Source: Chrysomallon squamiferum (lineage: Eukaryota; Animalia; Mollusca). From it: a DNA stretch of 64,000 nt. The stretch is taken from contig CM022678.1 in NCBI GenBank assembly GCA_012295275.1, forward strand, positions 3,968,001 through 4,032,000, in the 5' to 3' direction. Both the position numbers and the translations under genes were made by a program. The notes under the pieces are model-generated. The model saw only the letters and a list, made by a program, of their open reading frames with translations. It was not told the DNA's origin and did not search any database. Positions 1 through 60,061 of this stretch are shown piece by piece; the stretch's first letter is position 1, and the number at the start of each line of letters is the position of its first letter.

Positions 1-6492
<6,492 letters not shown>

Positions 6493-32727: not shown

Positions 32728-33127
32728 GTATATTTCCTCTCACAGATCAATATACTCAGCCACGCGTAAACACATCGACGCTATCTTTCAGAACGCGGAC
32801 ACGTTCCCACAGAATCCTGTAACTCTTGTTAACGACTGACACAGACGGTCGTAAAGAAAGTCCCACGTAACAAGCGCACGGCGAACGGTCTCGTACACTG
32901 GCTGCCGGATCGGCAAGACCCGTATCAATTGTCCGCGAATTAATGAGTAGCGAAGTCTTCTATTAGCCGACGTGATGGGATTCGTTAATAGGCAGGAATA
33001 TCCACGCGCGTTCTTTCGGCTGCTTTCCGCATCGCTCGGCGCGTCTGACGAAGAAGAGTCCGTTATTCGGGGAAACAGTGTAATATTTATGGAGAACTAA
33101 CAGCCGAGGAAAAAAGTTTGCTTCGCA

Positions 33128-35343
33128 ATGGAGAAAAGTTTGACCGTGTCGGTTTTAATGGCTTTGTTGATCGGAGTGTTTTTCGTCGTTTTGTTTACCG
33201 ATCGTTTCAACGGAGTGAGTTTGAGTACGAATTCGCGGCTGGTGGGAAATTACGAGGGTAGACTCACGAAGAGGTCCGAACGTCATTCGGGTTCAGAGAA
33301 GTACCATCGGGGTTCGTGTACACTTCTGGAACCTTCGGAAGACGACCTGCTTCTTCTTGGAAAAACTGTTTCGAAACCTTCTTGGGCTAGCGACGCGAAA
33401 CCAGGTGTCGTCTGCTACTTAAATGTGTCGTGTCATTTAGAAAACGGCCGTGTATCGGCTGAATGTTCTTCTCGCTCCTGTTCGGCCGTTTCCGTAACAT
33501 TTAAAGGTTCTAACGTGACTAAGTCGAACTTGAGTATGAAAATGTTGGCCGAAATGATAGAGATTATGAACGACATGGGAACGGTAAATATCAACAACAG
33601 ATTATTAATTTTCTGTGACGACGGTTCCGATTCAGAAGAGAAAATTAAAAACGAAGTGAAGTTCCGGCTGGATTATCTTGGAACTGGAAACTGTGCAAGT
33701 AATTCGGAAACTATCGGATCACCGGTGCACGTAAATATTTTCTTCTTTCGTTTCCTCTCCAGACATGCACTTTTGGCTAAAATGAAGTCGCTAGCGGCAG
33801 CCATTAATGACGATTTTAACAGTGAAGTTCTGGATTTTACGAAGTACCAGAGTACGGAGTGGAAATTTCAGAAAAGTCTGTCATTGTTTCTCCAGGGAAA
33901 CGACATTTTTAATATCTCGAACCCTTCGTTATTAACGTTAGCCAGGGATTTAGGATTTGATGTGAAGCTTTTAAACACCGCTATCGAAAAGGCGTCCAGT
34001 CATGAAGATTTCCTGAAACTAATCTCGAAGCAAGTTAATGCGTCTTGCTCCGATTCGGACCAGTCGTTTAGAAAATGCTGTTTACGGCTTTTCACGGAAG
34101 ACGCCGAAATTGAGACGACACTTGACGATTTCAGGGAGTGCGTCTTGACCGAAGACAAAAGACCCGTGTTTCGTGTTTCTTTTCTAAATTACGTTGACTA
34201 TTCACGCGATATATCGATGCTTGACGACGTCTTGACCGACGTCATAAAACAACTTTCCAGACGACAGAATTCGGTCATCTTTCTTCTGAGTGACGTAGGC
34301 GATCCCATTTTCGCGACACTGGCGTCTAGTTTATTTTTGCAGACGGAACCGTCGAATCCGTTTTGTATTTATTTATTCCAAACCGTCTCGGCGGTTCTGT
34401 CACCAGCAACAAAATACGGAGGACAGCTAAAGCTAACACGAAGCAAATTATCAGTCTGCTTGACATTCACGAAACTGTTAAAGACGTTCTATATCTGTTG
34501 TCCGGAAGAGACGATAATGAACAAGCGAAAATAAAACCCGTGGTCACTAATCGTCGATCGCTATTTACGGAAACTCGGTGAGGTGCCAAACCCTGAAGAT
34601 ATCTCCCCCGGGCCTGTGCATTTGCGAGAACGATTTTGCGCTTTATCCCAACGATACCATACAAGTCGCCTTCGCAGAGGTAGCGCTGGGACTCGTCAAC
34701 AACAGGATCCTCGATTACGTCACGAAACGATTCGGGTACAACGCCAGAGATTTATCTCCCTTGTTGCGCGGGAAGTCGTTCTCCAAAGTGCGCGTGCGGC
34801 AACGTAACAACAACGTACAGCAAAGGATCATGGATATTTCCTACGTCTCGGAGAACACTGGCCTCAACTCAAACGTTAATTAACATTAGCGTGAACTTTG
34901 ACCCCGTTGTTAAATCATGCTCGCTGGACTACGTTGACAGGCTGTTTTTAGAAACCCATTTTTCAACGATCATACGTCACATCAGCAGACTTTATTCACC
35001 CGAAAAGCTTCTGTCGTCGTCTTCTGCCCGGCACGGACTGTCGGGGAAACACTTCGGTGTTACTCCCAAAGAAATTGCGATCCACCAACGCTGCCTGGTC
35101 TTGTTCAAAACGGACTTCATGGACGCCGCCACCTTCGAGATTGGAAACGTCTGCAACGATCGAAAGTACAGCTTCACTTTCGATTCCAATCTGTTGGACA
35201 CAGTATCACTCGTCGCTCTGCCCGTTTCCGTCAACCTCGGTCCCGGAGACTTTCGTTTCTTGACTTCGTTTGTGAAGAGCTCTTATTTAGTCAAACATGG
35301 CAGGTTCCATTATGAAACAGACTATGAAGTGACGTATTTGTAA
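33128..35343 (+). CDS. DUF229-like (alkaline phosphatase/sulfatase superfamily) type II membrane protein; single coding exon interrupted by three frameshifts (about 738 aa when joined); gene with consensus errors or a young pseudogene
   Basis: N-terminal TM anchor (LTVSVLMALLIGVFFVVLF). Joining ORFs 33128, 34363, 34578 and 34891 gives VIFLLSDVG...EPSNPF/LYLFIP...ANTKQIISLLDIHETVKDVL...RRSLFTE..RCQTLKISPPGLCICE, which follows the DUF229 motif order (SDHG, PFL..lP, N..rL....DiH.Tl, SLF, C...C.C). Family recognised from memory of motifs, not from a search. Confidence 0.7.
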
Positions 35344-35389: not shown

Positions 35390-35586
35390 AACGTTTGAAA
35401 GTTGATTGCAATTATCAGAGATTCTGCAAGGGACGCTGCAATAGGCGGGAAAGGGAGACAACTGGTCCCAAAACGTTTGTTGGACTAAAACTTACTATAC
35501 ATAATTTGTTATTATTTTATTATTATTATTTCTAAATTATTTAATTATGAATGTATGGATGAGAGAAAAACGAAATTAACACAAAT

Positions 35587-35592
<6 letters not shown>
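35390..35592. repeat. About 200-bp direct repeat, copy 1
   Basis: gattctgcaagggacgctgcaataggcgggaaagggagacaactggtcccaaaacgtttgttggactaaaac... is nearly identical to 36971-37165. It is preceded by poly-T and followed by (AG)n. Confidence 0.93.
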
Positions 35593-36970: not shown

Positions 36971-37165
36971 AACGTTTAAAAGTTATTGTAGTTGTCAGAT
37001 TCTGCAAGGGACGCTGCAATAGGCGGGAAAGGGAGACAACTGGTCCCAAAACGTTTGTTGGACTAAAACTTACTATACATAATTTGTTATTATTTTTATT
37101 ATTATTTCTAAATTATTTAATTATGAATGTATGGATGAGAGAAAAAAATTAACACAAATAAAGAG
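36971..37165. repeat. About 200-bp direct repeat, copy 2
   Basis: Near-identical to 35390-35592, with the same poly-T and (AG)n flanks. Confidence 0.93.
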
Positions 37166-42975: not shown

Positions 42976-45900
42976 TGGGGAAGGTTTGTAAAAGACATTC
43001 CGTTGGTTAATCTTACCAGCTAATGGATTTGTATACAAAACCTATCATTTGAAATGAAAAAAATTAATTCGATAAATTATTAGAAAATGGCAGGAATGGT
43101 AAACTGAGTATTTAAAAGGTTAGATCCATGGAACTGTTATGTCTCACTACTACAGAACCATTAAGTTCATGCATACGAGAGCAGTTTAATAATATTTCCA
43201 TGATTGATTTTGAGTTTCGAAGTTAATGATAAACACAATTTAATTATCGGTATTAGCTAAGAGAAACTGATATATATATATATGTATATATACACACACA
43301 CACACACACATACAAATATGTACATACAACCATGTATACGAACATTCATTACACATATCTGCAAAGCTACATTCACACACTTATAAACATGCAGATATCA
43401 GATAATCAGTTTTGGTTATAAAGTTAAAACGTAAAATATAATTACTTCTCTTTTACGTTGAAGTAAAAAAACAAAAACAAAAACAACAAAAAATGAAGGT
43501 CTTTCTCTACATATGTAAATAAACAGAAAGGAAAATATAGGTTTTCATGTTACAGAATCTTCTGTGTGAAGTCTTCTGGGAGAAAGTTTAAATGTAGGTT
43601 AATGGAAAGAACACGAATTATGAGCGGAGCGCCGTAGCCACAGATGTTCAGAGAGTAAAAATTAATTATTATAAAGAGAAAGGCAGACAGACAGACTCAC
43701 AGAAAGACAGAGAGACAGACGCAATTACATCTGTGCTTTGTAGAATCCAAAACGACACAATCAAACTAAACGTACGTTATTCTCATGAGGTATAAAAATA
43801 ACAGTATAACTATTATATTTTTGTGACAAACGTTTAAAAATGGACGTGCATAAATTGATATATTTTTTAAACTTTCAAAACGTCATTGCTTTCAAATTAT
43901 TTTTTGATAATAATTATTAAAATGAATCAAACATATTATAAAATAATGATTAAATAAAAACAAATTAATATTTAAAAATCAATAAATATATATAATATAT
44001 TTAAAACGAAATTTTGTAACTTACAAGTCGTTCTTTATTTACAGTTCTGTTATAATCTGCATTATTTGAATAACGAAACATTACCGTTAACGCGTTTCAG
44101 AGACGAAGGGAAATAACAAATGAATAAAACGTAAAAAGGCATCACGAATTACCCCCCTTGTCGCTGTAATGTAATAATCTGCCACGACTCGATTTTATTT
44201 CAGTATTTAATTTAAACATTGTAGCACCATTAATGTCGCAATGAACAGTTTACATTTAAGTATCAGTACTTCAGTTTGGATTAGGTATATGAACATATTT
44301 TTTTTACTTTTTTAACTACATGTGAATAACGCATTAGGACACCTTAATTAAATGTATTAATTAACTACCGGCAAAATATGCAAAATATTTACTTCCTCTA
44401 ACCAAATTTATAGAAAAAGAAATTTTAAAACAAATATTACATTTATTAAGACATAAAAAGTCTATGTATTTGTTTTGTTTTAAGTCCATTTATAAGACTT
44501 AACATAGGTAAGGGAGATAATTTGTTATATCAGACCAAATACTTAACAGCTACATAAGTAATGGAACTAATTATAATTACAACAGACTTAAATATACAAC
44601 ATTTACCCAAGGGAGATTATTATTGTTAAAAGAGATTAAATACTTACCAGTGACACACATAAAAGATATTTTTTTATTTTTTCAAATATTAACATCAGCA
44701 TTATTTACTGCAACAGTTTTTATTACAAAACTGTTTTCATAGAAAAAGTATTTACCATATTCCAACACAAGTTTTAACTGATCTACATCATGACATGAAT
44801 AATGTGAAAATATATGTATATATTTTTTTGTTTCTATTAACCAAAAGAATTTTGACTATGAAATATTTAGAACTGGACAAACTAGAAGTCAGCAACAATG
44901 GTTTTTGTCATATTAGCATCATATATAAAGTTAAACAGATTTCTGTTCTTGATGTCAGTGCTGTCTAAAGTTTGTTTAATAACCAACCCATTTTGTGCTT
45001 TGAATAAATTAGTGAACTCCTATACAGATAATAAAGAGAATACAGAGAATAATACAGTTGTGTATGTGACTGATGGCTGAAGAATAAACACTTAATTCAA
45101 AATTGTGATCTGTACATGTGATAAGTTCAACACTGCATGTTATTACTGGTTCTGTTATTTATTACTAGCACACATATTTTCATCAGAGTGTTCATTTTTT
45201 GTCTCAGTTCTAGTAAGCAAATCAGATATATATTTGTGACAGATGTCATCATATACAGACATCCTCCACAGGCATAAATAAACAACTACAGACCAGTTAT
45301 ATTACGAGTATTTCAATAGAGAAGTATGTTTATATAAAATTTAAAAAATGATTATGATGATGACATTGAAAACCAATAATAGTTCTTGTAATAACAGTAA
45401 CAACAAAACCAGTGCAAACTTCTGTACCAGAGTCATGTGTTTGTGAATGGTGATAGAACTCATATACAGAAATACTCCACAAGTATTAAACATTACATTT
45501 GTATTGTTGTTGTCTGTACTTCTGATGTCTTTTACTGTACAAACCCCTCCTGGTTTGTTAACTAGACACTCTATCATCATCTCAAAGTCTGTTGGTCTGT
45601 GAGTATTTACACATTTGTGGTGGTAACTCTTTGAATTTGTGTTCTAGTTTTATTTCATCCTCTCATCTCTAATTCTAGTCTACTCCATTTTTGCCAAGTA
45701 AGTATTATTCTCAAGAACAATTAGAAAAACAAAAATTGTTGTTATCTCAATTTGTATCTGTGAACACATTGACATACTACAATTTTTTTTAAATTTTCAC
45801 TGAAAATATTTTGAGGTTTAATTGTAATTATGTCCAAAATCACTTCAAGACTGACAATACAAACACTCAACCCATGAAACAACACAAAACAAAAATCTGT

Positions 45901-46038
45901 TGTTATTTCTATCTGCAACTGCAAGACACTAACAACAACAATAATAATCATATTAAAAATGAAAATAAAAAATAAAAATAATAATAATAACAATAAAAAT
46001 AAAAAGGTCATTGATTTATTTACTTAAATTTTTCTCCC

Positions 46039-48260
46039 TCATTGGAAAACGTGATTTTTCTCACACATGTAGCTAAAGAAAAAGAGAAGATTGTCATAAC
46101 AACCATTATACGTTTCCTCTAAATACAACTCATGGTAACTGCACAGAAAATAGTACACAGCCTCGATGGTTGACAGATATGTGTCAGGTTGTTTCTCCTG
46201 TGAACGCCAGAAACAAGTCCTCTGACATTTTATTTCTACTCTCTGGAGTCCTAAAACAAATACAAACAACATTTTTAGTATTATTTTAGGTCTAATGGAA
46301 GGTCTGATTTAATACTCGTTTATAATATCAAAAAGTTAAAAATAAAAGAAATGAAATATGTGTATATCCCAGTAAACTTGATGTAGTCATTGAAATATGT
46401 TGAAAATGATTGTTTAGATTAGTGCAAGGTTGCAACCAGTCATTAAAGTTGAGAATTAAACTTCAAATAAATAAATAAGTAAGTAAGTAAATAAATAAAT
46501 AATAAAAAAATAATAATTTAAAAAAAAATTAAAAATCATGGGCATATACTTCCAATATGAAATTCAACCAAAGATCCTGCACTCTGATATTAAATATTAT
46601 TATATTGTTATTATTACTCACTCATTTTACTGACATTATTACTATTATTATTATTATCAAATAAGTCCACCTTTTTGCTGTGTCCATAGTGGGAATTGTA
46701 AGTTTCATAAATCGATGGTAAGCTACAAATTACCAGGTCCATATTTTGTGGGAACCTGTTACCAGAGAATGCTTATTTCAAATAATATTATTACTGATAC
46801 AAGTTGCAATGGAAACAGAAGATTTAAATAAATTTACTAGATGTAGGGAGAAGAAATGTATCATTCATAATAATACTGACAGATTTGAAGACAGAAAAAA
46901 GACAAGTAAGTGATAAAGTTTCATCTTAAACAATAATGCAACACAAATAATATCTTAAAAAGAATCATTTTGAGCAAATATAAAAATGAAACAGAAAAAA
47001 TTAAGAAAAAAAGAAAAAAAAAAAAAACATAAAAAAAACACCATCTGTAAACAAAATGTCACCTGATAAATATATGATAATAATGAACATTAATTCGTAC
47101 CTGATAACCTTTCATCTTCAAATATTGTCTTTGCCTGCTTCCAAGTAGAATCAATGAAAACAACTTTTGAAAAAGAAGGTGTCAGCTTAGTCTTACTTTT
47201 CTTAACACCAGTTTCAAAGTTTTCCACATTTTGACAAAAACTGTCATTACTGACACAGCCTTTTTCAGTGTGTGATGAAGAATTTACATCTTTCACTTCA
47301 TGTTTCCTTTTTCTGCATGACAGAAATTGAGGAGAGATACAGTTATCAGTTCTACATTCTGAAGTTTTCACTGTTGAACAAATGATCTGGTTGTCTTTTT
47401 CTTCATCTGATAGAAATTGCTGTTCTTTCTCTTCAGAATTGTCACCGTTTGCTTCATTTTCTGAAAGAGTTGATAGAAAATAAATAAAATTTCAATCTTC
47501 TGTCTCAGTGAAAGACGTTTATTTAACAATTTGATATTTTAAAATCAGTTAAATGCCTATAACCTAATTATTTATTTACATATCTGGCTTTCTGTCTATC
47601 TACCTGTCTTTATCTGTTTGTTGGATTAGAAAACAGACCAATTAAAATATGAGTACATTAATAGTGAAGTATACTTATGCATGCATAATAAAAATGATTA
47701 TTATGGTAAAAGTGATAAATAATAATACTTCAAGTAATAAAAATAATGATTGTACTAGTAATAGTAATAACAGCAGTTGTGTAAATAATAATAATAATAA
47801 TTATACTAACCTGTAACTGATTCTGTATTCTGAACAGCTGTTTCTTTCTGTACTAAGTTTTCTAAAGAAACAGAGCCATCTCCAGGAAAAACTAGAATAA
47901 CCTGGAATTTAATAAATAAATAAATAAAAAAATAAAAAAAAAAGAAGTGATAACTTTTTTAAAACTATAATTTAAGTCTTACTACAATCAGAACTATTAT
48001 CCTCAGTTTTATGAGCAGATAATTCCTGTTAATTGTAGTTGATACAGTTAAAATAGACATTACCAAACATCCCAGTGAACAAGATGGGAAGAGTACATCT
48101 GCTGACAAATCAGCTCTATTAGCTGGATTAGAAAATAGTTCATTTATCTTTGAAGCAAACTGTACTTAGCCATTTGACTTCAGAGTAATTTAATCAATTT
48201 TCCCTTCCTGCATAGTGATATTTCATTTGTTAATTTTCATTAAAAAAGATAACAATTAAA

Positions 48261-48301
<41 letters not shown>

Positions 48302-49112
48302 AAAAGGAAATAAAAGAAATAAATAAACATTAAATATATTTTTAAATTTTTTTTATAATAATAAAAATAAAAAACAATAATGAAATAATAATTAAAAATA
48401 AATAAATAAATAAAATAATACTGTAACAATAAAAGAAATAAAGGAGAAAGACTTAAATAAAATAAAAATGGTTCTTTCAAATTACCTTATTTTTGTTATA
48501 ATCAGGGATACAAGGATATGTGTAGATTGTGACATCGTCGTTAGCGAGGACTGCAGCATGACACGCTGTGCTCTTCCCATCTCGTTCACTGCGATGTTTG
48601 ATAATGTCTATTTTAACTGGGAGCTGAAATTATAAATTCAGCTCTGCATAATAATTAACAGTAACAAGTGTAATTAATACAAATTATTATCAGGACTTTT
48701 ACAATTAATGCTTTCAAACTGGAATTGAAACAATTAACTGTAATATATCGAGCTTAGAAAAATAAAATTCAGAATAATTGAAAATGCCATATAAATTTAT
48801 AAAATATTAATTCTTACTCCAAACATTTATTTATTGTTTAATGAATTTTTGACTATTAATATTACTTGTTGTAATGATGGTCGTAATAAAAATCTGAAGA
48901 AAAAAGATTAAAAAAAAAAGAAAAAAAAAAAAGGAAGAAGATAATACCTTGACTGATGGTATACGGTTTTGTAGAAGACCCACTGCTACGAAACATGTAT
49001 AACAAAAATATTTGCGTGATCGTCCGCATTTTGGACAAGGACTTCTCGAGTTTGCAGCTTCCAAAATATCAGTACTGTCAATTTTCAGATTTGTGAAAAC
49101 GTTTTTCTTCAT
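46039..49112 (-). CDS. DTWD1: tRNA-uridine aminocarboxypropyltransferase 1 (DTW domain-containing protein 1), about 321 aa
   Basis: In-frame GT-AG exons 49112-48948, 48623-48486, 47901-47811, 47460-47101, 46250-46039. Motifs [66 protein letters not shown] and YDNLLFFF are characteristic of DTWD1. Confidence 0.96.
48045..48097 (+). repeat. Inverted partial copy of the DTWD1 second coding exon inside the downstream intron
   Basis: Plus-strand cagttaaaatagacattaccaaacatcccagtgaacaagatgggaagagtaca matches the exon sense sequence (48619-48567, minus) at 49/53 nt. Confidence 0.93.
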
Positions 49113-49219
49113 AGTAAAACTATCTGGAAAATAAATAAAAACACATAATAATATGTACACATTAAATCTGCTAATGGGTTTTATAATACTAATCGAAAAT
49201 GTCAAACAATGTAAATCAT

Positions 49220-49500
49220 ATAATTACCGACTATGACGTCTGATTTCTAATCTAAAATCGTGGTTAAAACAAACTATTTTTATCTTCTGCACCTATCTTC
49301 ATATTAGAGTGCTCTCCCTTTAATACTTCCGTTTTAAGTTCAGTACCTGTAAATATTTTTATTTCTCGTGTATAAGAACATTGATAACTGAACATCAACA
49401 GTTAATTACAACAATAACTGCCGGTGTATGCTATTTTTTATTTCACCCTACCTCTGCAGATATTTAAGAGTGAACGAAACCTGTTTCAATGATATCGTGA
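49220..49500. promoter_or_regulatory. Putative bidirectional promoter between DTWD1 and the serine protease gene
   Basis: The head-to-head start codons are about 815 bp apart. There is a minus-strand donor near 49227 (DTWD1 5' UTR exon), a CRE-like TGACGTC near 49234 and an ETS-like ACTTCCG near 49325. Confidence 0.5.
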
Positions 49501-49926
49501 ATCGTTTTAAATTACACACTAAAAATAATTTGTACAACATTTATTTGTTTATTTATGTCAAAACAACATAAATAATCACTTTTATCTTGTTATCAGTTAT
49601 CTACTGTCAACTTGATGATAATATTCTGTAGTTAGATATATCATTTATAAAGTTAATGATCTATTTGATTTGTCTATTTTTTCTTCATATATATTTTTTT
49701 TTTAATTATTTCATTTTATTTATAATATACATGTGTATAAAATATTTTATAATATTTTTTATTTGTCTTTAAACATTTTATATTATATTTTATTTAATTT
49801 GTTTAATATTATTTGTTTAAATTTTATATATATTTTTTTTAATATTTATTTTCATTCATTTAATAATTTCACTCTTCATTTCATATAAACCAGAAACTTT
49901 TTAGCACAAGAAAAATTCTGTATATT

Positions 49927-51155
49927 ATGCTGGAACTTGATGTAGATGATCCACTTGAAGAAACAACAACACGAAGGAAACATACTGCAAATCGGAAACT
50001 GTTTATTATAGTCATTGTTTGCATTAATGTAGTTGTTCTTGGCATTGTTGCTGTAATTCTTGCTGTTGTTTTGAAAGGTAAGCATATTTTTACAGACACA
50101 TACATGTAAAGTTTAATAAAATAGTTAGTTGGACACAGAATAAAATTTTCTGAAATTGAGGGAAAAAACCCAGAAAAGTCCTGAAACTATGAATGAGGCC
50201 TAGATTGATTAGTTAGAGCTATCATATCTTTTTTAGAAACTTCATTTTGAAACCTGTATTTCAAAATGTACACACATTATAAGAAATAAACACACTTCTG
50301 TTGCATGTATAAATTAAACTGCTAATAAATTATTTAATTTAAGCTCATTATATACAAAAACATACAAACACATAAACAACACACACATGCATGAATTACA
50401 TATATATTCATGTGTATATATATATATATATACAAACAGACATAAGCTATACAGATACTCATACTTGTGCTAATGAGAAAATAATTTTTGAAAAATAAAG
50501 TCTTCAAAAAAAAAAAAAAAAAAAACAGTAATATTCTCTACTTATTTTTCAGATGAAGCAAACAATTCTGTATCAGAATCAGACAAGACACTTGAACCAG
50601 GACCAACAACATCATCATCATCACCTACCACATCATACATTTTATTTTCCACCACTGACAGCATCATCATTTCACCAACTCCTACTACACAGACATTAAT
50701 CTACACATCATCCCTGGAATCTACTGGCTGGAAAGATCTGTCTACTCTTGAGACTGTTAGCATAGAATCTTCGATGCCTGAATTTACACAGAGTGTCTCT
50801 TTAAAAGAAGATATTTCTGTGACTACAGTCAGTTTAGAAATCTCTTCAACTGTTCAGTCTACTGTTTCTACAACACCAGTAACACTTCCAGGTTAGTCTC
50901 TGGTTTTGAAAAAAAAAAATATATATAAAAAAAATATGTACAAGAATTAAAAATGTAGAAGACAGATATTGCTTTTTTTTTTTGTTGTTGTTGTCTTAAT
51001 GTGTCGGATATTTGAAAAAAATTATTTTGTTTATTTGAGTGTATGTTTATATTTGTATGTGTGTCTCATAAATATTTCCTTTTATATGTGTGTTTGTATG
51101 TATGTGCATCTGTAGTGTTTTTCTGTATACGTCTGTGTGTATGTGTGTGTGTGTA

Positions 51156-51207
<52 letters not shown>

Positions 51208-52237
51208 TCATTGTCTGTGTGTGTGATAGTGTATGTACTCAAGTTCATTTTAGAATGACATAGTTGTACTCTTAAAACAGGTGGTTGCTTTATAAAGTCA
51301 GTTTACAGCATATATGATTAAATAGAAGTATGTTCTCTAAACAAAGGTGGTTTTTTATAGCAGGTTTCACTATGGTTGTTATCTACAGTTATTCAAATTA
51401 ATGAGTTTTATTTTATCATTGTAATATATTTATTCTGTTTTTATTACATCTTTTATGTATATGAATTAATAAACAGCTATTTAATAAAATAAATGTTAGC
51501 AGGGTTTTTTTTTTTTTTTTACAGACTGCAAATTGAAGGAATTTCAATGTGAGGGTGGGGAATGCATCCCAGAAAATCAAGTTTGTGATCATGTGACACA
51601 ATGCCAGGACAAGTCTGATGAGAAATTTTGTACTAGTGAGTTAATTAATTAATTAATTAATTTATTGATTGATTGATTGATTTTTATTTAATTTTTATTT
51701 ATTATATCATTTTGTTATTATTAATTTTATTATATTTTTCTTCTTACTTCTGTTTCTTAATTTTACTGTTGTTGTTATATATTTTTTTTTTTTTTGTACT
51801 GGTTTATTTTTTTTTTTAGAGATAACATTACTGTTTAAAAATTAATTATAAAAAATAATGATAAAAGATTTGAGATTTTTATAAAATTTAAAATAGAATT
51901 TTATTCTTCAGAATTTCATTTCTTTTTTTGTTTTAGCAATCTATATTATTTTTTCCATATTAGAAATTAATTTTTGTAATGATTATCATAATTATTATTA
52001 AAATAATGTAATTATATCATCATCATCATTATTATTATTATTGGGTTGAAACACAAATTGTTAGCATTATTTCGGTACATGCCATTTCAGCATATGATTT
52101 TATATCATAGACTGATACAAGTTACATATTCATAAAATTGTACAAAATGGCACAATAACATTGAATAAATCTGTGTACAAATAAATAAATATTAGCTTTG
52201 AATTTCACTTAAAAAGTGCTATGCATGTTTGTTCCAA

Positions 52238-52299
<62 letters not shown>

Positions 52300-53368
52300 T
52301 TGTTATTACTATTATATTTTTAACACTATTAAAAAAAAAAAAAAAAAAAAAGAAAATGTTTTAATTATGGATCCATATTGATTTTCCTTAACATTATCAA
52401 TAAATAAAAATAAAATAATAAAATGTATTTTACTTTATCTCAAAGACTGTACAGGTTTTCAGTGCAGGTCTGGGGTGTGTCTGTGGGGCAATTTACAATG
52501 GAGATGTGATGGCATCTTTCACTGTTCTGATCTTAGTGACGAAATAAACTGTTGTAAGTGTTTCTCTTCAGCTTGTTATTTTGTTATTATACTTTATTAT
52601 TAGAAAAGGCTGGATGCGTGAATACATAAACAATTACAGGTGTAAATTATAAACATTTCTTTTCAGAGTTTTTATCTTCATTTAGAACTATTTTGAAACT
52701 GTTATTATACTTTATTTTTAGAAAAGATTGGATGGCTGCTATATATGAAATATGATAACAATGTCTGAGTGTATGTTAGAAATATTTCTTCTCAGGGTTT
52801 TTCTTTACATAGTTGATGAGAACTGTCATAAGCATTTTATTTATTTTATTATACTTTTGTGTTATAAGCTATCGGTTATGTACATTTATACAGAGACAAA
52901 CACACTCACATACTATATATATATATATATACAAAGTATGAATTACAAACATTTCTTTTCATTCTTTATTTTCTGTTACCATTATTTAATTGATAATGTA
53001 ACTATTTAATGTTTTTAATTTATTTCTATTTTATTTATTTATTCTCTTCAAGCACTGAGACCAGGCTACTGTTACTGTTCAAATGGAATTCAGATTCCTA
53101 GATTAAACTGGTGTGATGGTGTTGATAACTGTTTTGATAATTCTGACGAAATAGCTTGCCGTACGTTTTTATTATATATTTCCAATTATTAATAATAATA
53201 ATAAATTGGTTAATGAAATAGAAATTACAATTTGTCACATAGTTAATGATATAGAAATACAGTTCAACTTCATATTTAGCGAAACAGATATTACATTTTA
53301 TTTATTCCTTAAAAATGAACAGTAAAACAAAATGTTCAGTTTTCTTTATTTGTTTGATGGCATGCTTG

Positions 53369-53452
<84 letters not shown>

Positions 53453-54804
53453 ATATGAGCCATTAAATATACTGATCGGTGAGAGGAAAGAGATATAGAT
53501 ACACAGATAGATAGATAGATACAGAGAGAGAGAGAGTTAGAATTTACTGTCAGTTTAAAGATTATTTAATTTTTTTGCAGCTTGTGTAAATGGTCGGTAT
53601 GCCTGTCCTGATGGAAGCTGTATTCTCAGAGACTGGCTGTGTGATGGACATTCAGACTGTCAGAACGGAACAGATGAAAAAAACTGCAGTAAGAAGATTT
53701 ATAAAAATAAAACACACACACACACATATATATATATGCATTCATAAAATCCTACAGAAAATCAAATGTAAATAAACACATAAAAATATATGTTTATATA
53801 CTCATATAAATATTCACACACATACACACACACAAATATTTACATACACATTCATAAATACACACAGAAAATCAAACAGATGTACGTAAATAAACACGTA
53901 AAAATATTTGTTTACACACTCATATATTCATACAAATGTTCACACACTCACACACACACACAGAACACACATATTGCAAACATTATTGCACGAATAAGAA
54001 CAAATAAATATGAGTTCTTATTTCATACTTTAATAAACTGATATTTTAGTTTGTTGTTTTAGTGTTTTCTGTATTTTATTTTATTTTATTTCATTCATTC
54101 ATTTATTCATTCACTTATTTATTTATTTATTCACTTACTTATTTATTTAATTATTTAATTGATCTGATTGTGTATATTTGAAAGCTTTCTTGAAGCAACA
54201 ACAACAAAACACACCTTTGCCAGTTCTCCCAAGATAAAACTTATATGAAAAGAATAAATAAAACTAAATACTTATTCAGAGAATGTTATCCATACAACTC
54301 ATGCTATTTTACAGATTCCTGCAGTTCTGATCAGTTTGTCTGTTCAGATTTCACCTGTCTTAATGAATCTCAGGTGTGTGATGGTAACTACACCTGTTCA
54401 GGTAAAGAAGATGAAGCCAACTGCTGTAAGTACCTGTAATTTATGAGTTACCTGTGAATGATACCTGCATAACAATAAGTCATGTGGTTTTAGAACAAGT
54501 ATTAAAATTTTAGTAATGATTTTTGTTTTACGTTTAGATGGATATATGAATGTCTTATCTATTGATATATAAATAAAAAATAACAAAAAAATTTATCTAA
54601 TTAAAGATATCTTAAAACAAAATAAATAAAAAACAAAAAAAACAAAACAAATAAAAAAAATAAAACAAAAAAATTTTTTACACAGATTTATTCATTCATT
54701 TTCAAATGGTAAAAAAAATCACATTTGAAATGGTAATACTTTCTCAATTTTGCTAATCTTTGCAACAAATGAAAATATAATTACATTATCTTTGCAACAA
54801 CAAA

Positions 54805-54843
<39 letters not shown>

Positions 54844-55214
54844 CGTAAATATTATGATCACAATGACAATAACAGTTTAAATAAACAAATAAATAAAACA
54901 TTTGTTCAGTATTATTCCAGCATGTACATTTTTATTTTTTCAGTTGAGCTGTCCAAGGACACACTTGGTGGACGTCTGCTAATTAAATACAAGAACAAAA
55001 CATTTCCTGTTTGTGCTGACCACTGGTCATTTTCACACAGCCAGTTTGTGTGTGACCAGCATGACTTGTAAGTTTATATTTCAAATACTACTACTAATAA
55101 TAATAGCAGCAACAACAACAACAATACAAATTAGTGTGAATAACTAACAGTTATAATAATTATAATAATAATGATGACAATAATAATAATAATGACCTAG
55201 TAGTATTAGTAGTA

Positions 55215-55249
<35 letters not shown>

Positions 55250-58200
55250 TAATAATAAAAAGAAGAAGAAGACTAAAAAGAAAAGGAAAATAATAATGTT
55301 AGTAATAAATAAAATACTACAATAAAGAAGAAAAACAATAATAATAAAAAATATAATGACAACAAAATGTCACCACCACAACAGCAACAACAACAATAAC
55401 AGTAATAAAGAAACAAAACAACCCAAAACATAATACATAAATAGAACTTAAACAGCGATTTTTAAAGGAAGTAAATTTTCTTTAATTAAATTCCTCCACA
55501 GAAGCCTGAGATCCGATTCTTTTATTATTTCCACTGACAACATATCTGAAGTCTTTGCTTTGAAAAATGGTGACAGATTCACACCAGATGTGAAACCTGT
55601 GCTTCAGCATTTTCATAAAATGTAAGTGAATTTCATTAACATTTCATTTACATGTTGAAAATTATCTCAAAAACTACAGATTTGATTAAAAGTGGCTTTT
55701 TTATTTTTTATTTTTTATTATTATTATTTTTTTTTTTTTTGGCATAGATTTTGGTTTTATTTTCATTTAGAAATGCTAGGTACCAAAGGAATGATTTTTA
55801 TGATTTCTAAATGATTATTTAGCTGCCTAAATGATTGTGTTCCTTCTTGGATAATTATATTAATTTCCTGAATGATTTTACTGTGAACACTGTTAACATT
55901 ATGAATGATTGTACTAATTTTCTGAATGATTATTTTACATAAAAAAGATTACTGTATTAACCTTCTGGTTAATAGTGTTAACTTCAGCAATCATTGTCTG
56001 AACGTGTTTTAATATTTACATTAAAATTTATAAGTGGATCAGTCTTTTAAGTTCATTTGTACATGCATGGTTATACGAGTTATCTTTCCTTATTTATTGT
56101 CTTTCCTTGTTAGCTGTTATTACTAATTTTTTGTTTAATTTTGTCTTGCATCAAAGTATGTAGTTATTTGGGGTGAGTTTCTTATTTATTTATTTATTTA
56201 TTTATTTATTTTTTTTATTTTAATTTTGAACTGGATCGTTTAATAGATTATTTTTAATCTTTGCTAATACACAGTGTGTGTGTGTGTGTGTGTATGTGTA
56301 TTTCAAGGGTTTGTTTATGGGCATACACACAGAACACACACACACACACACACACTCACACACACACATACACACACACCTTCTATGGCATGATAGTGTG
56401 TATGTTTATTTATATGTGCACACATTTGCCCTACCATTGTTATATTCCAGAATCTCCAGTTTCTTCTTTTTTTTTGGTTTCAATTTGTTTCAGTTTGCTT
56501 ATTTTTTTGGTTTCATTTTGTTTCAGTTTGCTTATTGTTTTGGTTTCATTTTGTTTCAGTTTGCTTATTGTTTTGGTTTCATTTTGTTTCAGTTTGCTTA
56601 TTTTTGTTTGTTTGTTTTTAATTTGCTCTGTATTCTGTGTTTTGTTTTTGTTTATTTTTGCATGCAGGACAACTTGCCCCTCTCAACGTCTTGTTTATGT
56701 TTCATGCAAACACCAAGGTTAGAAATGTTTGTTTTCTACTAACAAACTTACATACTAACCAGCCTGTCATTATGTAGAATTAGAAATCCATTATTATTTT
56801 TTTTTTTTTTTAAAAAAATGTCATATACATGATATGTATATATGTACTTAATATCTTGGAATTAAGAAGTTAATATAAAATCTGGTTTATTTAGTTATAT
56901 ATTTATTAAATTTTATTTTATTTAAAAAAAAAAAAAAATCCTAAAACTGAAAAACATGATGAATAAAAGACATCATCATCATAATTATCATCATCAACAT
57001 TAATTTAACCATCATCATTATAATTATCATCATCAACATTAATTTAACCATCATCATTATAATTATCATCATCAACTGTTTTAATAATCATCATTTCATC
57101 ATCATCATCAATATAATCAATACCACTTCCATTATCAACATAACTATCATGGCCATATTTATCATTTCACCAGCACCATCATCATTATCATTATCATTAC
57201 AATCATTATTATTGTTATCATTATCATTATCATTACCAAACATCATTATCATTGTTATAATTATCACTTTTACCACTATTGTCATCATCATGCTCTCTAG
57301 CATTATTATAACAATATTATTCAATTTCTTTTTATAATCAAAATACTTTTGAAGAAAATCACAAAAAAAATGGCATCATCATCATCTTCACCATCATTGT
57401 CATCACAATACTAATGCCATCATCATCATCATCATTTCACCACCTTATTATCCTCATTATTATAACAATCACACCATAATCATCATCATCATCATCATCA
57501 TCATTACCATTATCATCAGCTTTATTATCATTATAGTGTTAAATTTCTTTTTTATATTAAAAAAAAAAAAATACTGTAATTCAGAATGTGGTGAAAGAAA
57601 GGCCAGTGTTCTGACTCCATTCATTGCTGGGGGTAACATGGTCAGTAGTGGACAGTGGCCTTGGGTAGCTGCAGTGACCTATCTTGGAAAGTACCAGTGT
57701 ACTGGAACTGTTATCGGTCAGCGATGGATAATAACTGCAGGACACTGTGTTGCTAGGTAACCATTGTTTGAAAATATTTAGTAGTGTTGATTTAATGATG
57801 TATTTTGTCTAAAATTTACATGATATGTCAGTATTTATTATAATTTTTAATTTTTAATTTTTAATTTTAGTTCAAAAGTATTTTCAGTTACTGATTTAAA
57901 GATGTATTCCTTATAATATTTTTTTTAATTAACTGATGATTCAAGAGTGTTTTCATTTGTTTAAAAATGATATCATTCATTTAAGTTATACAATAATATT
58001 TGTTACATTTATTAATTAATTGCTTTAGAATGGAACAGAAAAACACATACCAAAAACAAAATAATAATAATAGTAATAATAATGAAGAAAAACATAATTA
58101 TTATTTATTTTCAAAATATATGATGTACACATTTTCAAAATAATTAAATGGTGTAGATTCAATTTTGACTGGTTTGTCTTAAAAACTTACATATATTGTT

Positions 58201-60061
58201 TATATACAATGTGCTTTAATATAAATTGTTAATAAAGTCATTAATATGTTTTTAATTCATTAATTATCACATTTTGTTCTAATCTGCCAATAAATATTCA
58301 TTCATTCATCCATTCATTCAGTTGATCAATCATTCAGTTATTGTTATTTTTCTTCACTTCAATTTCAAAAACGTAAAAATATGTTTTCTTTTTTTACAGA
58401 ACAGGCATCTACAACTACACCAACACCCCTATTACTTCAACATCATCCTCGGCAGCACCAGCATCAATGACAAGGATTCAAAAACAAAGCAACAGCTACG
58501 AGTATCGAAAATTATTACGCATCCAGACATGAAACTGAAAAAATCTGGAATCACTGACTGGGACATTGCGTTGTTGCAGACAGCCGACAGCATCAACTAC
58601 ACTGACTACGTACAGCCTATCTGTTTGCCACACAGCGAAGAGACATCATTGACATCGTTTCTCTGTTTTGTTGCTGGGTGGGGAAGGTTGAATAATCAGC
58701 AGTGTAGGTTTTGTTTTGTTTTTGTGTAAAATGAATACTTTTTATTTATATTTTATTTATTTTTTTATTTTTTATTATTATTATTTTTTTTTGTTTTTTT
58801 GAATTTGTTATGGTTTGTTTTCATTTTGTTTCGTTTCAGGATATTCAAAAAAAAAAAAAAAAAATTTATTTTATTTTGTTTCTTTGAATTGAAATAAATT
58901 TCATTTAAACTTTAATTTAATTTAATTTAATTTGATTTGATTTAATATAAGAAAAAATATTTTTGCTTTTGTTTCATGCATTATTATTATATTTTTTATT
59001 TTTATTTATTTTTATTTTTTTAGCTAGCGTAAATTATTCTTATATATGTTTATATTTATATTTTTATTGATGATATAAAAATAAATTTATTATTAATATT
59101 ATATTACGTTACATTTTCATTACAATAGATTACATTAGATTACATTACATCACATAATGTTATAATACTGACACATTTTTTTATTGTGTTATATTACAAT
59201 TGTATTGTGTTTTGAACACAGACGTTATGACAGGTGATTTATTTATATTATATTATATTATATTATATTACGTTACATTATATTACATAATGTTAAAATA
59301 CTGACATGTTTGTTGTATTGTATTATAATTGTATTGTATTTTGAACACAGATGTTGTGACAGGTGATTATATTATATTACGTTACATTATATTACATAAT
59401 GTTAAAATACTGACATGTTTGTTGTATTGTATTGTATTGTATTATATTACAATTGTATTGTATTTTGAACACAGATGTTGTGACAGGTGACTTACGAGAT
59501 GCTAAGATGAGGATCTGGCCTGATTCTCAGTGTTCTACGAATGTTGTGGCCGGGGAAGCCGATGTGAACACAAACTCGACTTTGTGTGCTGGATATCTCA
59601 CAGGAGTACCTACAGCATGTCAGGTGATTGTCTGTGTGTGTGTGTGTGTCTGTGTGTGTCTGTGTGTGTGTGTGTGTGTGTCTGTGTGTTACTGTGTGTG
59701 GCTGTGTGTGTGTCTGTGTCTGTGTGTGTGTCTGTGTCTGTGTATGTGTGTGCATTGTTATAAAGATAATATTGACGGTGATATTGTTGAAGACTCTGAC
59801 TGGTTTTTATTGATCGTTATAGTGATCATCATCAATATAATATTAATAATAAAAATAAGAAGAAGAAGAAGAAAAAAATTATTATTATTAGTAGTAGTAT
59901 TATTAGTATTATTAGCATTATTATTATTGATTTTACTATTGTTATTGTTATTGTTATTATTATTATTATATTAAATTTATCATTATTATTATTATTATTA
60001 TTATTGCTATTATTGTTATTATTTTTATTATTATCGTTATTAATATTATTACTATTTTTAT

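Follow-up and report, generated by a model that had tools for sequence, protein, structure and literature searches.

Intron 2 of a DTWD1 gene holds a 53-nt inverted copy of the start of the gene's own second coding exon, and this copy is probably a neutral inverted duplication born of a template switch, which is now drifting and may attract a low level of ADAR editing as a by-product. We examined a 64,000-nucleotide stretch of DNA (the window), in which a repeat search found two 53-nt arms that are 49/53 identical (92% complementary) and separated by 469 nt (Table 1), bearing out the earlier note's claim of an inverted duplicate of the beginning of the second coding exon. On the plus strand the copy reads in the coding sense, and in the pre-mRNA the same tract forms the antisense arm. 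When a 271-nt stretch around the copy was compared with the window by BLAST, the donor arm matched with an E value of 3e-17 and the second-best match had an E value of 0.17. The BLAST alignment of the arms also reproduced the mismatches previously listed for the RNA duplex, namely, two G-U pairs, one G-G, and one C-A (exon/copy: 48601/48063, U-G; 48592/48072, G-G; 48583/48081, G-U; 48570/48094, C-A), with the A of the sole A-C mismatch on the intron side. Copy and donor have thus diverged at 4/53 positions (95% interval, 2 to 18%). We found no published account of this element and no literature on RNA editing in Chrysomallon, and a search for literature linking DTWD1 with RNA editing did not turn up the element, one paper having DTWD1 only as a knockout control. 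The element itself is without a published description that we could find, but its class is known.

Table 1. Coordinates in the window of the inverted copy, its donor, the adjoining hairpin, and the parts of the DTWD1 gene
Feature	Coordinates	Strand	Evidence and remarks
Inverted copy (53 nt) of exon 2 nucleotides 5-57	48045..48097	+	Repeat search, BLAST, X1 and X2 contigs; lies inside DTWD1 intron 2
Donor arm in DTWD1 exon 2, codons VKIDII to DGKST	48567..48619	-	Repeat search, BLAST
Perfect 8-bp hairpin with 8-nt loop over the intron 1 acceptor	48621..48644	-	Folding (predicted); ends 1 nt from the copied tract
DTWD1 coding exon 1	48948..49112	-	Gene model, exon 1 search; junction in loose ends of X6 and X8
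DTWD1 coding exon 2 (138 nt, phase 0 at both ends, AG/GT ends)	48486..48623	-	Gene model; X6 and X8 contigs splice it to exons 1 and 3
DTWD1 intron 2 (584 nt, 20% GC, no CpG)	47902..48485	-	Gene model, composition
DTWD1 exon 3	47811..47901	-	Gene model; junction in loose ends of X6 and X8
DTWD1 exon 4 (predicted)	47101..47460	-	Splice signals and alignment to homologue P0002
DTWD1 last coding exon (predicted), Pfam DTW	46042..46250	-	Gene model, Pfam

The host gene is DTWD1, with five coding exons and canonical splice signals, and its product contains the DTW domain, the DSTW motif, and the KH..E.DGKST segment. A DTW-domain search returned 581 matches, the best 120 of which were compared; 119 of these carry the KHx motif, and because the residue counts given below rest on top-scoring homologues, invariance is somewhat inflated. 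The gene model shares 59% identity over 313 aligned residues with DTWD1 of Gigantopelta aegis, the closest named homologue among the 120 matches listed, and at most 52% with the next seven of the 120 homologues compared. Searching with exon 1 gave just 2 matches among 55 candidates, G. aegis and one close relative. The cephalopod context assumed earlier was not borne out: the best named homologue among the matches listed is from a peltospirid gastropod, and no cephalopod is named there. On sequence grounds, the host is likely a peltospirid or a related gastropod of hydrothermal vents and not a coleoid, with the scaly-foot snail as a candidate. The split between the scaly-foot snail and G. aegis is placed at ∼66 million years ago in the relevant section of PMC7736800.

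Based on the Pfam DTW domain and the similarity to G. aegis DTWD1, the snail protein resembles the tRNA-uridine aminocarboxypropyltransferases of the DTWD1 family, an activity predicted here from sequence. In the bacterial homologue TapT, residues N69, T70, and G71 are described as contacting SAM (PMC12630136); our guess, made unaligned, is that N69-G71 corresponds to the segment around DGKST. The DTWD1 model of Mytilus coruscus (P0001) has the second half of the exon 2 peptide about seven times in tandem. Either this exon was duplicated independently in Mytilus or the gene model is in error. In the last exon of the snail gene (46033-46060, minus strand), we observed an early in-frame stop, with an adjacent frame that ends like G. 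aegis DTWD1. This stop is likely an assembly error, a one-base slip in an A run (possible extra A), and otherwise a real truncation.

We compared contigs from 4 of the 9 listed runs with positions 48475-48700 only. Two runs are genomic (X1, possibly the source of the assembly, and X2, from another study), and two yielded RNA-derived contigs: X8, which is RNA on record, and X6, whose DNA label is a guess yet which is spliced and comes from the same sample as X1. Both genomic runs have contigs that carry the copy; each gives a reverse fit to 48567-48619 with 4 differing letters (counted, not itemized), and their loose ends are the intron 2 flanks of the copy, one base (48038) excepted. At that base, 7 nt outside the copy, the window differs from X1 and X2 alike. 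The X2 contig represents the copy and not the exon, and an X1 contig spanning exon 2 has 0 differences over 226 nt. Presence in the reads, on which the earlier note had made its reading depend, is therefore seen in the contigs of both studies, and since the copy has four differences in each, it is likely fixed or common. An assembly artefact, whether from a fold-back read or a mis-join, has next to no probability. Small assembly errors are likely nearby (the last exon may have one A too many, and the base at 48038 differs from both DNA runs), but a diverged copy with its own flanks in contigs of 2/2 genomic runs from two studies largely refutes this explanation.

Both RNA-derived contigs include exon 2, spliced to exons 1 and 3. 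Each has one differing letter, none of them listed as internal to exon 2, and we attribute this single difference to a 6-nt overhang past the donor, where one base distinguishes exon 3 from the intron. The exon 2 sequence in these 2/2 contigs equals that of the genome, for X6 in the same sample as DNA run X1, which indicates that editing of any adenosine affects at most a minority of transcripts in these two samples; the contigs have depths of 7.9 and 4.6, come from unspecified tissue, and drop minority variants. The suggestion that the copy controls editing or splicing accordingly found no support in contigs that match the genome and splice exon 2 normally, within a compared stretch (48475-48700) where a skipped isoform or the intronic arm could not appear. 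At the loose end of the X6 contig, three bases in the last 13 letters (47870-47885) differ from exon 3, none being an mRNA-sense A-to-G change. They could stem from a divergent allele or a paralogue, or from an error at the end of the contig.

The four differences between the arms allow the copy to be ordered relative to a coding change. At 48592, the exon encodes Arg (KHR for KHP), a reading confirmed by the X1 contig and by the spliced X6 and X8 contigs; KHR is genomic and expressed. This residue sets the snail exon apart from its family, as Pro occupies the KHx position in 103/119 homologues and Arg in 0/119 among the matches listed. Because homologues including G. aegis have Pro, the exon appears to have changed after copying and the copy did not follow, which supports the proposal that the copy is older than the KHP-to-KHR change. 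Two further differences arose on the copy side. One is an Ile-to-Thr change at a residue that is Ile in 119/119 homologues among the matches listed, and the other is a CGA-to-CAA transition of the CpG type, with the Arg kept in G. aegis; intron 2 has 0 CpG in 584 nt, and the observed/expected ratio in exon 2 is 1.0. The fourth difference is synonymous, and the distant loci described below give no polarity for the change.

A transition in a duplicated pair leads to G-U or A-C at equal odds, so that two G-U pairs out of three are expected with P = 0.5. From the sequence, the four differences look like drift, with the G-U count at chance level, and the divergence is what a fairly young, drifting copy would show. 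A copy of greater age, maintained by compensatory change, would be indistinguishable from it, neutral decay being deduced here from one species. Scanning metagenomes, we found no inverted copy at four distant DTWD1 loci (L001-L004; 188 to 3000 nt downstream examined), whose arm identity to the DTWD1 exon 2 tract is 33 to 41/53, all distant. We excluded two further loci, L005-L006, for want of a clear relationship (48% over a short part). A short-protein search gave 4 matches, all with KHP and none close.

The origin of the copy by inverted duplication of exon sequence, as claimed earlier, is supported, and the edges of the copy are sharp. Similarity between the flanks is no better than random, the best local scores being reached by 27 to 86% of 300 random segments of the window, and we rejected a duplication that extends into the flanks, as such similarity is within this random-segment null. 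Two short words are common to the copy flanks and the end of intron 1 and rare in the window (an 8-mer found twice and a 9-mer found three times); chosen post hoc and not beating the same null, they are a weak hint at origin. Self-BLAST of the window gave 29 rows at ∼14 places (grouped by hand), 4 of them inverted, with the copy as the strongest inverted match. Small local duplications are common in the window.

Template switching can generate inverted repeats with dissimilar flanks in one step, as set out in parts of two studies (Loytynoja and Goldman, PMC5453318; Monttinen and Loytynoja, PMC8794818). The snail copy has the features of these mutations, a short reverse-complement tract nearby with dissimilar flanks, which would yield a near-perfect hairpin in one step without selection. 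It differs from the events treated in these parts in that they are modeled at tens of bases, whereas the snail arms are 469 nt apart and the copied tract comes from a conserved coding exon. Because the spacer exceeds the short-range model (tens of bases in the pertinent section of PMC5453318), the switch may have spanned a longer range, or the copy may be a templated insertion at a break. We propose that the polymerase stalled at or near the 8-bp hairpin by the donor edge, copied the opposite strand for ∼50 nt, and then returned, all in a one-off replication event that would precede the exon's Pro-to-Arg change. Later changes would then have accumulated on both arms without compensation. The 64-kb window has 4 distinct hairpins of this type (perfect, 8 bp, GC-containing); the one at the donor edge was noticed post hoc.

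Folding of 47900-48700 recovered the exon-intron stem (z = -11.4 versus 20 shuffles). The duplex has a predicted energy of ∼-82 kcal/mol, compared with -95 kcal/mol for a perfect version and -76 kcal/mol for the opposite-strand version, and predicted pairing probabilities are at least 0.98 at 48/53 stem positions; the near-perfect exon-intron stem earlier expected on folding the pre-mRNA is borne out as a prediction. The greater stability of the sense-strand duplex than of the antisense one (-82 versus -76 kcal/mol) counts against neutrality, being in the direction that selection would favor, though it is within chance. Within intron 2, 388 nt separate the copy from the 5′ splice site and 143 nt from the acceptor. 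Since transcription reaches the acceptor 143 nt after the copy, the stem is predicted to be able to form in each transcript ahead of intron 2 splicing.

Given this fold, the stem and the acceptor hairpin could tune DTWD1 output in one of three ways: by slowing splicing, by having exon 2 skipped in frame in some transcripts, or by hyper-editing that keeps the pre-mRNA in the nucleus. The stem is predicted to bury exon nucleotides 5 to 57 and to loop out the intron 2 donor, the intron 1 acceptor is predicted to be paired at a probability of at least 0.98 in a hairpin 1 nt from the stem, and the 138-nt length of exon 2 means that the frame survives skipping. Such tuning is nevertheless very unlikely, with exon 2 and both of its junctions in 2/2 RNA-derived contigs (where a skipped isoform could not show). 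In the predicted fold the hairpin buries the acceptor AG of intron 1; the junction is nonetheless used in both RNA-derived contigs.

The same duplex might instead give rise to endogenous small interfering RNAs (siRNAs) that repress DTWD1. Hairpin-RNA genes can arise from inverted copies of their targets, and a 53-bp duplex could supply approximately two duplexes of 21 to 22 nt. We regard this as highly improbable, since the pre-mRNA that carries the duplex is nuclear and short-lived, the loop is 469 nt long, and no Rfam match was found in 45500-50000 at E values up to 1. Less probable still is a plus-strand gene, or a small antisense coding exon, that includes the copy. A 48-codon frame (48023-48166) is open through the copy and for 22 more codons, but it is without a start codon, has 0 matches at E values up to 0.001 among 1.84 billion representatives and no Pfam match, and includes the altered, otherwise invariant Ile.

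The main functional alternative is that the copy is a selected, working editing-complementary sequence (ECS) that steers site-selective ADAR recoding of exon 2, e.g., Ile-to-Val at 48611. The intronic sequence is able to pair with the exon in the same pre-mRNA, as predicted, with near-certain pairing and the classic geometry of an exon and a downstream intron. ADARs occur in all animals examined except Trichoplax, a set that includes Aplysia and Crassostrea. The GluA2 Q/R site has its ECS downstream, in the downstream intron, a geometry that the snail stem shares. The NEIL1 K/R site has its ECS in the upstream intron (PMC4053975, in the passage on this site), the common feature being an exon that pairs with a nearby intron. 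Unlike both, the snail stem is near-perfect rather than interrupted, and has no exon-side A-C mismatch; its target is a housekeeping tRNA enzyme and not a neural or cytoskeletal gene.

According to the portion of PMC4053975 on duplex structure, selective ADAR editing is typical of short interrupted duplexes, and near-perfect long helices are edited at many sites; the snail's near-perfect 53-bp helix resembles such a hyper-editing substrate, and its one A-C mismatch has an intronic A. Protein comparisons point the same way. The donor arm has 17 full codons and 22 adenosines, and 17 of the possible A-to-G edits are nonsynonymous. Among the matches listed, 14/17 would give a residue present in 0/119 homologues and 10/17 would strike residues invariant in 119/119, suggesting that editing in the arm would be mostly harmful. 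The best-tolerated edit is the Ile-to-Val at 48611, as Val occurs at this codon in 14/119 homologues among the matches listed, including G. aegis. Also against an ECS are the absence of a majority edit from the 2/2 RNA-derived contigs (minority edits being hidden at these depths), a host that is likely not a coleoid, and the fact that a search of 7 supplement files from the metazoan editome paper PMC9989829 did not find the name DTWD1, in tables that may use species gene IDs. Together, we consider a selected ECS very unlikely.

As documented in sections of PMC9989829, gastropods possess ADARs and their young repeats are heavily edited, and some editing of the snail stem is therefore likely. 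For Aplysia, the same sections give 87% of editing sites as being in repeats, with low-divergence inverted pairs as the main ADAR targets (Zhang et al., PMC9989829); a passage of PMC8382921 describes Aplysia as being without extensive recoding. The snail arms resemble the hyper-edited young inverted repeats treated in the Zhang et al. sections in being a low-divergence inverted pair (4/53) in one transcript, whereas the repeats described there are transposon families and the snail copy is a single-copy exon fragment in which editing was not observed (contigs only). Under the template-switch origin that we prefer, scattered A-to-I changes on either arm are plausible as a by-product, at most at a low, nonselected level. 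Human DTWD1 is the acp3U20 writer on tRNA, and its single knockout has little growth defect in the experiments described in part of PMC6895100 (Takakura et al.). Transcripts edited in a small proportion would therefore likely be tolerated, not purged. An improbable variant is that one template switch gave DTWD1 an intronic ADAR partner that acts as a newborn editing guide, with exon 2 recoding (for example, Ile-to-Val at 48611), or output lowered by hyper-editing or skipping, in some tissue or temperature range. Overall, the inverted origin, the predicted stem, and a copy older than the coding change stand from the earlier reading, and its cephalopod context and its suggestion of editing or splicing control found no support.

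Elsewhere in the window, we observed two long, intronless, GC-richer frames at 33101-35340 (plus strand; 477 and 219 codons, in different frames) with no Pfam match, possibly one gene split by a frameshift; features of the first resemble DUF229/sulfatase-like clusters (score, 0.95). Just downstream of these frames is a recent direct duplication (35390-35588 and 36971-37161; 94% over 119 nt, plus an adjoining 40-nt piece). Another direct duplicate, of 117 nt and 73% identical, has one copy in DTWD1 intron 3 and the other downstream of the gene (45288-45400 and 47633-47746). A gene head-to-head with DTWD1 (49926-58726, plus strand) is likely to encode a type II membrane protease with LDL-receptor class A repeats and a trypsin domain. 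At 1636-4425 (minus strand) are exons of an NDUFV1-like gene (complex I 51-kDa subunit).

As it stands, the element is an ordinary case of small inverted duplication. Because the copy keeps the older Pro codon, the switch to Arg in the exon can be placed later than the duplication; the donor-edge hairpin hints at the mode of origin. If editing or skipping proved to depend on the copy, the snail gene would offer a clean case of an ECS born in one step. If the newborn-guide reading were true, the gene would document, with a date, how an exon-intron editing structure arose in a single step in an animal other than a cephalopod.
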